Origin: Microthyrium microscopicum
Lineage: Eukaryota
Reading direction: 5' to 3'
DNA length: 64,000 nucleotides
NCBI GenBank assembly: GCA_010405405.1
Contig: MU004244.1
Location: forward strand, 995,895-1,059,894
Shown: one piece after another, positions 41,951 to 47,335 of the stretch
Position numbering within the stretch: position 1 is the first letter of the stretch
Layout of the letters: every line of letters starts with the position of its first letter
Program-made: the position numbers and the translations under genes
The notes under the pieces: generated by a model
The model's input: only the letters and a program-made list of their open reading frames with translations
Told to the model about the DNA's origin: nothing
Databases searched by the model: none

Positions 41951-44900
41951 TTACAACGAGCCTTCCGCAGCTCTCGCCAGCACCTCAAATACACCTTGGC
42001 GGAGTTTATAACGTACTAAGCCAGCGAAGATACCCAAGTCCTCGATCGCGGTTTTCAAATACTGCACTGTACCCTGGCGACTATCTGTCTCCCAGCCAGA
42101 GCTCATGAGCTTCTCCTTCTCCTTTGTACACGCCAATACCATCCAGATCAGTACATCTCCAATGCAGCGCGCGATCACCTGGCTGAGCTCTGAAAAGTCC
42201 TGTGCTGACTGGCGAATGCGAGTAACGTCGCCTCGGAAATCGACTGGAAGGAGCTTGAGGTTGCCAATGGTTTCGATACACTCGACGTAATAGCGACCAA
42301 GAAGCAGCTCTTTCGCTCGGGCGAGCTGCAGAAGGACTTCAGCTGTCTTTCGTGTGTTTGGCTTGATTTTGTTGTATTCGTGCTGGCTGCTGGCCTGACT
42401 ATAGAGGCTGAGCATGTTGCGTGCGAGAACCACAGGATCGTCCACCGCTGTCAAGCTAAGGGTCGAGTTCTCTGAGAATGCCGGTCCAGACTCAACCTTG
42501 CGTGCCTTCAATGGCTCGAGACGCATTGCACTCTGTCCAAGCTCGACGGTAAGAGCTTCAGATAAGGTGCGGTTGACTATTGTCAAGACATTTTCGTACT
42601 CGCCAGCGAGATGGTAGAGAAGAACTGAGTCAGTGGTGCGTCCACCTTCATCTGCTGTTTGAGCGGCTTGTATGGTGAGTTTTTGGACAAAGTTATCCAT
42701 GTCACGTAGTGAGCCGGACACCGAGCCTCGCTTGATTAAATCGGTACGAAGTTGAATTGCGCCTGGAATGCGCTGCCCATCATTGCGAACATCACCTAGG
42801 AGTTGTGCAAATTCACGAGTTTCCAAGACAAGCTCTCGGAGCGCCTCGAGACATAGCTGCCCTTGTTGACGTCCAGCTTCCCCGGATAGGTCGGCATTAA
42901 GAGCCAACAAAATGAGATAATCAGCAGCTGCGTCCGGTTTAGCAGCTCGAAACTCGGACGTGTAATAGCCAACGATGAGAGCAAATTGCAATTGAGGCTC
43001 TTGTCTGGTGGTGAACGATACTACTTTTGTTAGCGTTGGCAATAAACCAAAGGAATTGATACTTACGCAAGTTAGTCTGAGAGAAATCTGATACTCGTAA
43101 CAGACCGTAGTATGCAAGGGCGATAGAAAAATGAACGGCTGCTATATAGTTGTAGTCGTAGAGCCATTTGATCGCGCTCTCATACATTCCTGCAAGAATC
43201 TGGAGGTAAAAGTAGATACCATAGCTGCCGCTGCTTTCAGAAGTGGGACCAAAGTGTCGTTGTCCGATATCTGTAACAATGCTACGAAGATCTTTCAAGC
43301 TGAAAGCATCTCCTGCAACCTCATCTGCCTTGTTGACCTCGCGAGCAAGAACAAATTGTAGCCAAATCCAATCTTCTTCATCGGATGGAATTCGATCAAA
43401 GTTCTTGCGCGACATTTCGCAACGACCAATCACTTTGTAACAGGCAATTTTGTAGGGATCAGTTTGAGATGCATCGTGAGCTCGAGATTTGCCTACATAC
43501 TCGCGCGCGATCGCTGTGCGAAGATCCTGTGGAAGTCTGCGGTCTGGATCTGCCGCATATGCTTCCATGTATCTGGAAAAGTTGCGGTCTAGACTTCGAA
43601 TTGCTCGCTGATTGTCTGCAACATATCTTGCAGCTTCTTCGACTAGGCCACAACGAAGAGCATAATAGATCAGTGCCCAGCAGTAGTCTGTTCCAGAAGG
43701 AGTGGTTATTTTCTGTATAGCTTGCATTTCAACATCCTGGTTCTCTGGCCCCACAAGATCTTTGCGCTGAGCCAAAACTCGAATGTACGCTCGAACCTTG
43801 TTGACTGGTTGGGGAACACCGCCCAAATTGGCCACCTTGGGATCTTTCGCAATGACGGTTTCGACCTTGCGCCAGAAGATGCCTTCGAGACATTTTTGTG
43901 CACCTCGCGTGATCCGTTTGCGCATGTTCTCTGCACGTTGAGCATTATCATTGTAGTTGAGATATTCGTTGACGAAAGAGCGTTCCCAGCTTTTGACATT
44001 TGGATCAGAACGAGCCAGTGTAGTACTGCTTTCCTCAGCAACTTCAATCAGTGCTTTGTACGCATTAGAGATCTGATCGGCACTCTGGTCCCCAACGGCA
44101 AGTTCGATTTCAGCCAATTGGTGCGCAATTGGAAATACCAGGTCCATATTTCTAGCTTCATTGAATTCTTGAATCTTTTTGGCATAGAGTTCTTGACGTT
44201 CGCGATTTGTGCGATCTTCCAGGCGCATACGTGGCTGGGATTTCGAATCACTTTCAGCTGCTTCACCAGGGGCACCTAGTACAGATGTTCGCAAATTGGC
44301 ATTGCCAATGATCGACTTTTGCATACCAGAAACTCGCATACCAGAAGCGGACGCTCGGAACCCTCGAGAGGAGCGGCCAAATGCCCCAGTGTTGGCTTTC
44401 GTTTGTGTAGCATCGTCATCCGCTGCATTTCCTGTAGGGGTTTTGAGACCGAAATGCTCGTAGACCTTTCTCCGTTGAGCATTCCAATTCATCTGGACTG
44501 TCTCTTCAAGGAAGTTGTCAAAGTCGCGTTTCGATTGTTCCAGTCCCTCTTGAATCATTTCCATCGTAGATTGTGTGCGCAAGTTCGAGACGAAGGTGTC
44601 AAGATCTGGATCTGGAGCAGCCTGGCCTGCAGCACCTGTTGTAGCTCCTGCTTGAGCTGCGAAATTGTTGAGATCACGGAGAGCATTGACAGTAGATACA
44701 CCAGATGATGCAAGCATGTAATGAGCTCTAGCATCTCTGTCACCAGCTCGCGCTTGTGCTGCACTGGGACCTCCAGTCCCTAGGTTTCTTGCTTTTCGAG
44801 CAATGTCCGCAAGACCAAGCTGTAGCGTAGGAATATCACCCAAGCCTCCATTGTCCAGATGATTTCTTTTCTTTCCTCGCTCTAGCATTTGATCAAAGTA

Positions 44901-45365
44901 AGCAGAGCTCCCTGGAGCTGCGGCGGCGGCTTCTGCCTGCGCTGGTTGTGCATTTGACTGATTTGCTTGTGCCGGACCCTGCGAAGCAAAGAGACTTCCG
45001 CCAAGCGCAGGTGCTTGCTGAGGTTGAGTAGACATGTTGAATAGAGAAGGGGCCGCATTCGTATTGGTATTTGGAGTAGAACCTAGGAAACCAGGCTTGT
45101 TTGTGGTCGACGCGAAAAGAGACGGGGCCGCTGCGGGTTTTGGCGTGCCTAACCCGCCAAAAAGAGACGTACTAGGAGCAGAGGAAGCAGGGTTATTGTT
45201 GAAAAGAGACGATGCAGGAGCGGCGGCGGCAGTGGTGTTGAGTTGGGGGAAAAGGCTCGATCGCGATGTTGAGGTATCTGCTCCTAGCGGAAGTGTAGAG
45301 GAGCGTTTTAATGGAGCGCCAAAAGCACCGCTGCCAGCTGCAGCACCGGTATTGCTGCCGAACAT
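41951..45365 (-). CDS. NIC96: Nucleoporin Nic96/Nup93
   Basis: PTLQLGLADIA, ANLGGVP, WALIYYALRCG, DPYKIACYKVIGRC, EDWIWLQF, AVHFSIALAYYGLL and LRELVLETREFAQLLGD. Intron 43066-43021. Confidence 0.93.
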
Positions 45366-45831
45366 GACGAGACCAAAATTACAGACGCTGAATTAAGAGC
45401 CGCCGGAATGCAAAGGTTGTGGTTGCTGGGTAAATGTTCTACACATTGGAAAGCGCGCTCTAATGTTTTGCTGGACAAGGATGTTATCTTGGCAGGGGCC
45501 CAAGCTCTAGTTTCCACCCCATCCCATGTCTCATCCGTTCCGCTCCGCTGCAAATGCTTCCTTCCGAGATTCTCCATCCGAGACTCAACATCAAGAGCTT
45601 TGTAACTTGCGTGCCAACTCAAGAACCTCAATTACAGCCTGTCTGACCTCTGACCGCTTGTATACTGGCAATTGACCTCAATGTGAGTCTGCCTACCCTC
45701 TGATACCACAAATAACTCACCTTACACAGCAAACGCTCGACAGTCACCCGCCGCAACTTGCCATCCGCAACAGTCAGTTCCAACAACAGCTATACCTCCG
45801 GTCCCCATTCCTCTGACAAAGCCCCAGAATC

Positions 45832-46211
45832 ATGTCTATGTCGGCCCGCGTCCTCCGCCCGCTCATGCGGACCTCAGTTCCTGCCATGTCGGTGCGAGCA
45901 CTGAGCACCAAAACCGCCGCAGCACGCTTCCAGTCTAAAAGCAAACCGCAAACCGCTGTACCAGAGAGCCGGATGCCATCCAAGGTACTACATCTCCTGA
46001 CTACCGACGGCTGCAGCTCCAAGCTAATTGCCTGTTTCTTAACTAGACTGTCTTGATGGCCGCCATGCCTCAGCTCGTGCCATTCTACTTCGTCAACGAG
46101 GTTGTTGGAGCTTTCATCGTTATTCCAACTCTCATCTATCTGATGTCGAAATACTGGCTGCCACAGATTGTACGCACCAAGTTGGCTCGTCTGTTTATCT
46201 CCAAGCTTTAA
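45832..46211 (+). CDS. ATP8: Nuclear-encoded mitochondrial ATP synthase subunit 8 precursor (105 aa: 57-aa leader plus 48-aa Atp8)
   Basis: Exon 1 45832-45984; phase-0 intron 45985-46046 (GTACTA...GCTAAT...TAG); exon 2 46047-46211 encodes TVLMAA-MPQLVPFYFVNEVVGAFIVIPTLIYLMSKYWLPQIVRTKLARLFISKL*. The MPQLVPFYF start and RLFISKL end match fungal Atp8. Confidence 0.93.
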
Positions 46212-46831: not shown

Positions 46832-47335
46832 ATGCCATATTATCCACTGCATCCCTTTTTCGCACCGCCAGTTAGACTAAACCGCCCGCCCCTTCCCCTT
46901 GAGAAGAAACGCCGAGCCTTCGTCTGGCCAAAAGATGGAAGACGCGACAGAACCAAATTTGGCCGTTTCATGGATATCATGCAAGGCAAAGGGCCAGACA
47001 TATTCGTCAGTGAATACGGCAGAAAGGATCAACCAACTCGAGGTCGTTGGACGAACCGCAACTGGCTGGATCGTGATGCATGGGGCCGGGAACATCTGGA
47101 CCTCAGCACTCCATCAATGCCATGGGCCAAAAGGAGGAGGAATGAAGCCTATAACTTTAGGACAAGCAAGTACGAGCGCGAAAGGACTGGTGAAGATCCA
47201 TGGGGCAGAATGTATGTCCGGAACCCCTTTGTTTTGACCGATGCCCGCTGGCTCCCTGGAGCAGATGCAGATGCTATGCCATTTGGATACAGGTGTGCCC
47301 ATGGCGATTATCACAAATGGGTCCACTATCCATGA
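46832..47335 (+). CDS. Hypothetical Arg/Trp/Pro-rich protein
   Basis: Single-exon ORF from ATG 46832 (MPYYPLHPFF...), preceded by a TATAA at about 46646. No recognisable domain. Confidence 0.6.
   Translation: MPYYPLHPFFAPPVRLNRPPLPLEKKRRAFVWPKDGRRDRTKFGRFMDIMQGKGPDIFVSEYGRKDQPTRGRWTNRNWLDRDAWGREHLDLSTPSMPWAKRRRNEAYNFRTSKYERERTGEDPWGRMYVRNPFVLTDARWLPGADADAMPFGYRCAHGDYHKWVHYP

Follow-up and report, generated by a model that had tools for sequence, protein, structure and literature searches.

The 64,000-nucleotide (nt) stretch of the Microthyrium microscopicum genome analysed here (NCBI GenBank assembly GCA_010405405.1, contig MU004244.1, positions 995,895 to 1,059,894 of the forward strand; hereafter the window, numbered from its first letter) contains, with a probability of about 0.9, a nuclear gene that is expressed, encodes subunit 8 (A6L) of the mitochondrial F1Fo ATP synthase and is orthologous to the nuclear atp8 gene of Pleosporales. 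A preliminary description made from the sequence had proposed that positions 45832-46211 hold an ATP8 gene relocated to the nucleus and equipped with a leader and an intron, and this proposal is supported by a Pfam match, by nuclear neighbour genes and by spliced joints in contigs of public runs. Relocation of atp8 is not new: it was published in 2017 for Stemphylium (PMC5626475), and the nuclear gene is annotated in several Dothideomycete orders. The locus adds a lineage and structural detail, namely a conserved intron at the seam between leader and transferred frame, introns in the 5' untranslated region (UTR) and a neighbourhood shared with a Nic96 gene, and no new phenomenon.

Gene structure and identity of the product

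When the window letters were read again, the sequence of 45832-46211 agreed to the base with the earlier description. On the plus strand, the coding sequence (CDS) opens with an ATG in a first exon of 51 codons (45832-45984), which is followed by a 62-nt intron in phase 0 (45985-46046) of the form GTACTA..CTAAT..TAG, in which the branch-like site CTAAT lies 21 nt from the intron end. The second coding exon (46047-46211) comprises a six-codon linker, TVLMAA (46047-46064), the mature 48-amino-acid (aa) subunit, MPQLVPFYF...ISKL (46065-46208), and a TAA stop codon (46209-46211), with the 3' UTR beyond. The intron therefore sits six codons upstream of the ATP8 methionine, and the linker between them follows a pattern, x-x-L-x-A/S-A/G, that is conserved in the alignment of relatives. 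Removal of the intron keeps the frame and gives 105 codons, a 57-aa leader and a 48-aa ATP8, so that the canonical 62-nt intron fusing a leader to a complete 48-aa peptide was confirmed as first described.

The peptide encoded by the second coding exon matched the Pfam family PF05933 (Fun_ATP-synt_8) with 73.8 bits against a cut-off of 26.1 (E 1.2e-20), over positions 1-48 of the 48-position profile; the first coding exon gave no family match in the Pfam search. A chance open reading frame (ORF) is excluded because the match runs over the full length of the profile. The best 19-residue stretch of the mature part has a mean Kyte-Doolittle value of 1.91, and the tail contains the basic residues R, K, R and K. 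In an alignment of 23 rows, comprising the window and 22 relatives, 14 columns of the 54-aa query were invariant. Judged by this profile match and these conserved columns, which also answer the question of identity posed at the outset, the product of the second coding exon is a complete fungal ATP synthase subunit 8.

The composition of the CDS is that of a nuclear gene, with a G+C content (GC) of 0.54, a GC at third codon positions of 0.64 and a GC of 0.47 for the window, and its only tryptophan codon is TGG; the earlier remark that GC-rich codons and TGG set it apart from an AT-rich fragment of mitochondrial DNA thus held. The accompanying remark that the ORF track shows the first exon alone did not, since the mechanical ORF list gives both a 74-aa ORF that begins in the first coding exon and runs into the intron and a separate 51-aa ORF that begins at ATG 46056 in the second.

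Transcription and splicing

Three contig sets from public sequencing runs, designated X1, X2 and X3, were used, whose RNA nature is guessed and from whose contigs strand, expression level and exact transcript ends are not readable. With the runs so understood, the contig joints show that the gene is transcribed from about 45615 and that three GT..AG introns are removed. The listed pieces of the X1 contigs differ from the window by no letter. The coding joint was present in X1 as 45982>46045, which with the cut moved by two bases becomes the GT..AG joint 45984/46047, at a depth of 1109 and with 89 letters on its shorter side. It was carried by contig 7 of X1 (5,784 nt), which covers 45894-45982, skips 62 bases and resumes at 46045. 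The same joint was found in X3, a run of a relative, in a piece with 4 other letters in 151 and a shorter side of 33 letters. The check for reads across 45984/46047 proposed with the first description thus had a positive outcome in contigs of both runs. The exon parts of contig 7 account for the whole depth of X1 in the two bins across the coding intron, so that no X1 contig lay on the intron itself.

Upstream of the start codon, both 5' UTR introns were removed in X1 and X2. The first 5' UTR exon (45615-45682) has an approximate 5' end: the depth of X1 is zero over 45394-45581 and begins in the bin 45582-45628, one X1 contig carries adapter-like loose letters just before 45615, and the joints leave the exon at 45682. 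The first 5' UTR intron (45683-45729, 47 nt, GTGAGT..CAG) is skipped by the joint 45682>45730 in both runs, and X1 also holds at least three alternative acceptors for it, with joints from 45682 to 45731, 45744 and 45747. The second 5' UTR exon (45730-45772) is flanked by both 5' UTR joints in contigs of X1 and X2. It is followed by the second 5' UTR intron (45773-45827, 55 nt, GTCAGT..CAG), which is skipped by the joint 45772>45828 in two X1 contigs and one X2 contig and which ends 4 nt upstream of the start codon. The third exon (45828-45984) contains the CDS from ATG 45832 and codes for leader residues 1-51. Because the X1 sequence matches the window letter for letter and yet shows three clean GT..AG joints, the X1 contigs are best explained as complementary DNA, and on that understanding the transcript is modelled with four exons, two 5' UTR introns and one coding intron. 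If the spliced mRNA is modelled from 45615, no ATG in any frame precedes ATG 45832, which has a stop upstream in its own frame.

Three further observations were made around the transcript. An ATG at 45681-45683 straddles the first 5' UTR donor and is present only in unspliced RNA. Contig 7 of X1 continues beyond 46700 and extends about 5 kb further downstream, which may represent overlapping neighbour transcripts or a merge by the assembler. An ORF downstream at 46832-47335 (167 aa) gave no Pfam match.

The leader

The leader had been described as rich in arginine, serine, alanine and lysine with one acidic residue, and its composition bears this out. Its 57 residues include 10 lysines and arginines, 9 serines, 9 alanines and a single glutamate, which at position 45 is the first acidic residue; the net charge is +9, and serine, threonine and alanine make up 40%. 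The leaders of 13 homologues fall in the same range, with 7-14 basic and 0-3 acidic residues (10 and 1 in the window). The start of the leader resembles that of the orthologue leaders, most of which open with a sequence like MSSAR(L/I)(L/F)RP, and the motif M-S/N-x-x-R-x-L-R-P is conserved; the middle of the leader is not alignable among orthologues. By its composition and its shared start motif, the leader is predicted to be of the mitochondrial import type.

These features bear on a different account of the locus, in which the functional product is the 51-aa form from ATG 46056 (MAAMPQ...), made with no cleavable leader, and the first coding exon is untranslated or regulatory. This codon does open an ORF of its own, and ATP8 is small and moderately hydrophobic. 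Against the short form, no AUG of the spliced mRNA comes before ATG 45832, which lies in frame; the leader start motif, basic composition and length class are kept in the 13 homologues; and several homologues have L, Q, K or Y in place of the methionine at 46056. The short form is thus considered very improbable, and the 105-aa precursor is retained as the product of the gene.

Orthologues in other fungi

A full HMMER pass over 1.84 billion representative proteins returned 130 proteins with E<=0.001, of which 21 reached E<=1e-10. The second-ranked protein (P0013; 7571 aa, 21 matched stretches) was discarded as spurious, being a repeat protein that has neither an MPQ nor a PF(Y/F)F motif. Among candidates of 96-2000 aa, 9 of 20 matched at E<=0.001, and in all nine of these longer homologues PF05933 forms the C-terminal end of the protein and is preceded by an extension of 52-88 aa; their identity is 72-77%. 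No protein identical to that of the window was present among the matches of 96-2000 aa, so that the collection holds no model of it of that length.

The named orthologues lie on nuclear contigs of 0.2-4.8 Mb. They include ATP8 proteins of 119 aa in Venturia inaequalis, V. effusa and V. nashicola (contigs of 1.9-2.9 Mb), 122 aa in Eremomyces bilateralis, 113 aa in Trichodelitschia bisporula, 107 aa in Macrophomina phaseolina and Lasiodiplodia theobromae, 141 aa in Pleosporales sp. CAS-2024a and 116 aa in Vermiconidia calcicola; further orthologues were found in Aulographum hederae, Bathelium mastoideum and Extremus antarcticus. By taxonomy, the holders belong to both Dothideomycete subclasses and to several unplaced orders. 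A genome bin labelled Pyrenula ochraceoflavens, a genus placed under Eurotiomycetes, holds a 131-aa protein (P0025) on a 334-kb contig. Its leader starts in the Dothideomycete manner (MSSARLLQPL), which means that either the label of the bin is wrong or the nuclear gene also occurs outside Dothideomycetes.

Two other models have to be read with care. The 132-aa model of Pyrenophora teres (P0068) has no MPQL start and looks faulty. The 143-aa model of an Aureobasidium sp. (P0072), from a contig of 23 kb, looks like a cox3 end continued into ATP8. The contig is probably mitochondrial and was translated under the nuclear code when annotated, which fits with Dothideales keeping a mitochondrial atp8. 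Models of nuclear ATP8 are often wrong elsewhere (P0014, P0015, P0024, P0030, P0009 and P0068), the error types being 56-aa ORFs that cover the second coding exon alone and start inside the intron, N-terminal over-extension to 141-242 aa, and mis-splicing. The view that gene callers would easily miss the gene therefore stands in part: models that are restricted to the second coding exon, over-extended or mis-spliced (P0014, P0015, P0024, P0068) bear it out, but many genomes annotate the gene correctly.

The seam intron in relatives

A scan of metagenomes matched 579 stretches, and from the 537 that were confirmed the 80 best were retained. Among these best 80 loci, 72 are AT-rich (GC 0.22-0.38), with MPQ directly after non-coding sequence and with the residues LPRFV. 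The other eight (L001-L006, L009 and L012) are GC-rich (0.46-0.61) and have a hexapeptide of the form T/H-x-L-x-A/S-A/G before MPQ, with a stop or CAG just ahead of it. Seven of the eight accept a phase-0 GT..AG intron of 52-67 nt, placed six codons before MPQ (seven in L004), and in these seven the modelled upstream exon starts MN/MS..R.LRP. The eighth locus, L012, has only 160 nt upstream and received no intron model, although GT and AG occur where such an intron would have them. For L002 and L005, the modelled joins give the same junctions as the spliced proteins P0024 and P0026. As modelled, the seam between a leader exon and the transferred frame is common to loci of the Pleosporales type, to other lineages and to the window. 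Acquisition of the leader as an exon of its own would be expected to leave an intron at this seam.

Nuclear and mitochondrial forms of ATP8

The 80 loci, the window and 14 proteins were cut to distinct 48-aa sequences without stops, giving 23 rows of nuclear type and 60 of mitochondrial type; P0068 and P0072 were kept in the 23-row alignment and excluded from the tree and from the hydrophobicity counts. In a maximum-likelihood tree, the 23 nuclear rows formed one side of a branch that separates them from the 60 mitochondrial rows, with support of 100/95. The nearest mitochondrial rows, L017 and L037, are for the most part similar in sequence to the ATP8 portion of P0072, the Aureobasidium model. 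The mean grand average of hydropathy (GRAVY) was 0.86 for nuclear and 1.19 for mitochondrial forms (Mann-Whitney p ~1e-10), and the best 19-residue stretch averaged 1.75 and 2.13, respectively (p ~4e-9). The lower values are in line with a decrease in hydrophobicity of membrane subunits after relocation, a comparison in which the AT bias of mitochondrial DNA and common ancestry are confounding factors.

The contrast with the mitochondrial-type loci also bears on whether the gene is a dead nuclear copy of mitochondrial DNA to which a leader and an intron became joined by chance. The mitochondrial descent of the peptide is the one point in favour of this explanation. It is at odds with the CDS GC of 0.54, against 0.22-0.38 in the 72 mitochondrial-type loci, with an intact frame and a full-length Pfam match, with an intron that is spliced in contigs of two runs, and with a leader and an intron position that are conserved across orders. 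It is therefore rejected in favour of a functional nuclear gene.

Two unusual sequences of mitochondrial type were seen in passing. A read-derived protein of 178 aa (P0012) consists of three identical ATP8 copies in tandem with identical 17-aa linkers, and may have arisen by tandem duplication or by rolling read-through of a small circle. In a protein of 201 aa (P0039), about 130 unrelated residues are fused in frame before ATP8; this N-terminal part may be a fragment of a homing endonuclease.

Nuclear setting and neighbouring genes

The nuclear location claimed for the gene agrees with its neighbours, with its GC relative to the mitochondrial-type loci, with its spliceosomal-type introns and with the large contigs that hold its orthologues. 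A Nic96/Nup93 nucleoporin gene on the minus strand (42939-45365; Pfam E 1.7e-96) is the divergent neighbour of the ATP8 gene, in head-to-head arrangement. At other positions the window contains an amidase fragment and an ORF resembling eIF2B-epsilon.

A search with the Nic96 protein returned 163 proteins. The best matches carry no species name and are 61-62% identical to the window protein; the best named matches are all from Dothideomycetes, with 51% identity in Trichodelitschia and 46% in Venturia, Trypethelium and Cryomyces, and proteins of Pleosporales are 39-44% identical. By these values the window belongs to a Dothideomycete-like fungus that lacks a near annotated relative in the collection searched and stands at some distance from Pleosporales. 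In Venturia inaequalis, the Nic96 gene (BLS_001320) and the ATP8 gene (BLS_001321) have adjacent locus tags, the same neighbourhood as in the window. In Trichodelitschia and Aulographum, the two genes share the figure for the longest contig (829,405 and 590,980, respectively), which fits one contig and does not imply adjacency. The Nic96/ATP8 gene pair may be an old neighbourhood.

Discussion

The preferred reading, an expressed nuclear gene whose product is imported, would work in the way known for imported subunits. The precursor would be made on cytosolic ribosomes and carried by its leader through TOM and TIM23 into the matrix, where the leader would be cleaved somewhere before MPQ. The 48-aa protein, with its single helix, would then enter the inner membrane, N-terminus facing outward, and associate with subunit a and the peripheral stalk. 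The leader would have been gained as a separate exon, and the intron would mark its seam with the transferred frame.

Several points weigh against this reading. The runs X1-X3 have no listed RNA record, and their interpretation as RNA rests on the three GT..AG joints. The intron models of the metagenome loci are our own placements, and other in-frame pairs of donor and acceptor are possible. A crude measure of amphipathic helix in the leader did not rise above chance, being reached by 257 of 1000 shuffles, and was treated as uninformative rather than as a sign that the leader does not target. Processing-peptidase motifs are of the arginine types R-2, R-3 and R-10; when the homologues were looked over by eye for such a motif before MPQ, the spacing was inconsistent. 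The tree has 48 columns only, and both its split and the GRAVY gap could be inflated by the difference between GC-rich and AT-rich composition. A tree with so few columns and opposite base compositions is not proof of a single origin, but its split is consistent with the seam and the leader start that the nuclear forms share. Finally, that the transfer was completed in M. microscopicum by loss of the mitochondrial copy is likely, but only by way of the relatives whose mitogenomes lack atp8.

Published mitogenomes supply these relatives. The mitogenome of Stemphylium lycopersici is without atp8 and atp9 (Franco et al. 2017, PMC5626475), as are those of other Pleosporales (PMC4366305; PMC6221350), in agreement with the premise of the preliminary description that several Pleosporales mitogenomes lack atp8. 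The gene was missing from 9 of 20 mitogenomes in one analysis (PMC7225605), and for the Macrophomina mitogenome atp6 and atp9 are listed and atp8 is not (PMC8451660). These data bear on the possibility that the transfer is real but incomplete, in which case a mitochondrial atp8 would persist alongside a redundant, condition-specific or newly dominant nuclear copy. Some Dothideomycetes do keep the mitochondrial gene: all Mycosphaerellaceae retain it (PMC7999263), and the Aureobasidium model P0072 reads like cox3 into atp8. Extremaceae, which belong to the same order as Mycosphaerellaceae, have the nuclear form, and a single transfer would mean that both copies coexisted for some time. In relatives for which both data sets exist (Pleosporales and Macrophomina), on the other hand, the nuclear form goes with a mitogenome without atp8, and the strong conservation of the nuclear protein (14 invariant columns) and the high X1 contig depth at the locus also speak against an incomplete transfer. 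An incomplete transfer is accordingly judged unlikely in M. microscopicum, though it is the most credible of the alternatives, and the completed transfer is preferred.

The conserved seam, the leader start M-S/N-x-x-R-x-L-R-P and the residues LPQxV of the nuclear form, in place of LPRFV, point to one old transfer common to Dothideomycetes. A tentative and more specific scenario, to which we give slightly less than an even chance, is a single transfer before the two Dothideomycete subclasses split, with the leader gained as an exon, the seam intron present in every lineage, and a very long coexistence of both copies followed by differential loss. If the transfer was single, such coexistence and differential loss follow from the distribution, since the nuclear form occurs in Pleosporomycetidae, in unplaced orders and in Extremaceae (Dothideomycetidae), but the mitochondrial form in Mycosphaerellaceae and apparently in Dothideales. 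The loss of atp8 has been proposed to postdate the divergence of the two subclasses (PMC5626475). A single transfer older than that loss is suggested by the class-wide seam intron, by the conserved opening of the leader, by the shared Nic96 neighbour and by the occurrence of the nuclear form in Extremaceae. The Pyrenula-labelled bin, unless mislabelled, hints that the event or its spread reached beyond the class.

The natural transfer of atp8 is rare, having been counted at fewer than six times across eukaryotes in a 2024 review (PMC10809612), and for this reason a natural, expressed, intron-bearing nuclear atp8 with a conserved leader is a useful model of the requirements for relocating an Fo subunit, which are a leader, perhaps a lower hydrophobicity, and a processing site. 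It should also be of use for work on the allotopic expression of ATP8. Because a short gene split at its seam is sometimes missed or mis-modelled, mitogenome papers may wrongly call atp8 simply 'missing'. In the literature searched, from which subscription journals were left out, there was no paper that maps nuclear atp8 across the class or describes the seam intron, and the word 'spliceosomal' has no occurrence in the main text of PMC5626475.

Comparison with known systems

The closest published case is the nuclear atp8 homologue of Stemphylium, TW65_04673, which is likewise extended at the N-terminus and for which TargetP predicted a mitochondrial targeting peptide (PMC5626475). The metagenome loci of the Pleosporales type (L001-L005) and the protein P0024 share with the window the leader exon, the seam intron and the six codons before MPQ. 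Pleosporales differ from the window in the lower identity of their Nic96 proteins, which stays below that of Trichodelitschia, and in an ATP8 part that is 69% identical in P0024. The annotated 'ATP synthase protein 8' entries of Dothideomycetes, from Venturia to Vermiconidia, resemble the window gene in being proteins of 100-125 aa with a C-terminal ATP8 encoded on large nuclear contigs, and differ in an identity of 65-77% to its ATP8 part; in Venturia, the Nic96 gene adjoins the ATP8 gene as in the window.

Mitochondrial atp8 of fungi belongs to the same Pfam family and shares the 48-aa length, the start MPQL(V/I)PF(Y/F) and the basic C-terminus. It differs from the window gene in its AT-rich DNA, in having no leader and no intron, in reading LPRFV where nuclear forms read LPQxV, and in a greater hydrophobicity that is confounded by composition. 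Relocation of Fo subunits by experiment works for atp8 in yeast according to a review (PMC10809612) and is reported for ATP9 (PMC3420929), and allotopic ATP8 is reported for yeast and human cells (PMC5449143, PMC5100594). The nuclear atp9 gene of filamentous ascomycetes and allotopic ATP8 are alike to the window gene in that an Fo subunit made in the cytosol is imported by means of an N-terminal presequence, as is predicted here. They concern another subunit or are man-made, whereas the gene of M. microscopicum is natural, bears an intron and has a conserved leader of its own.

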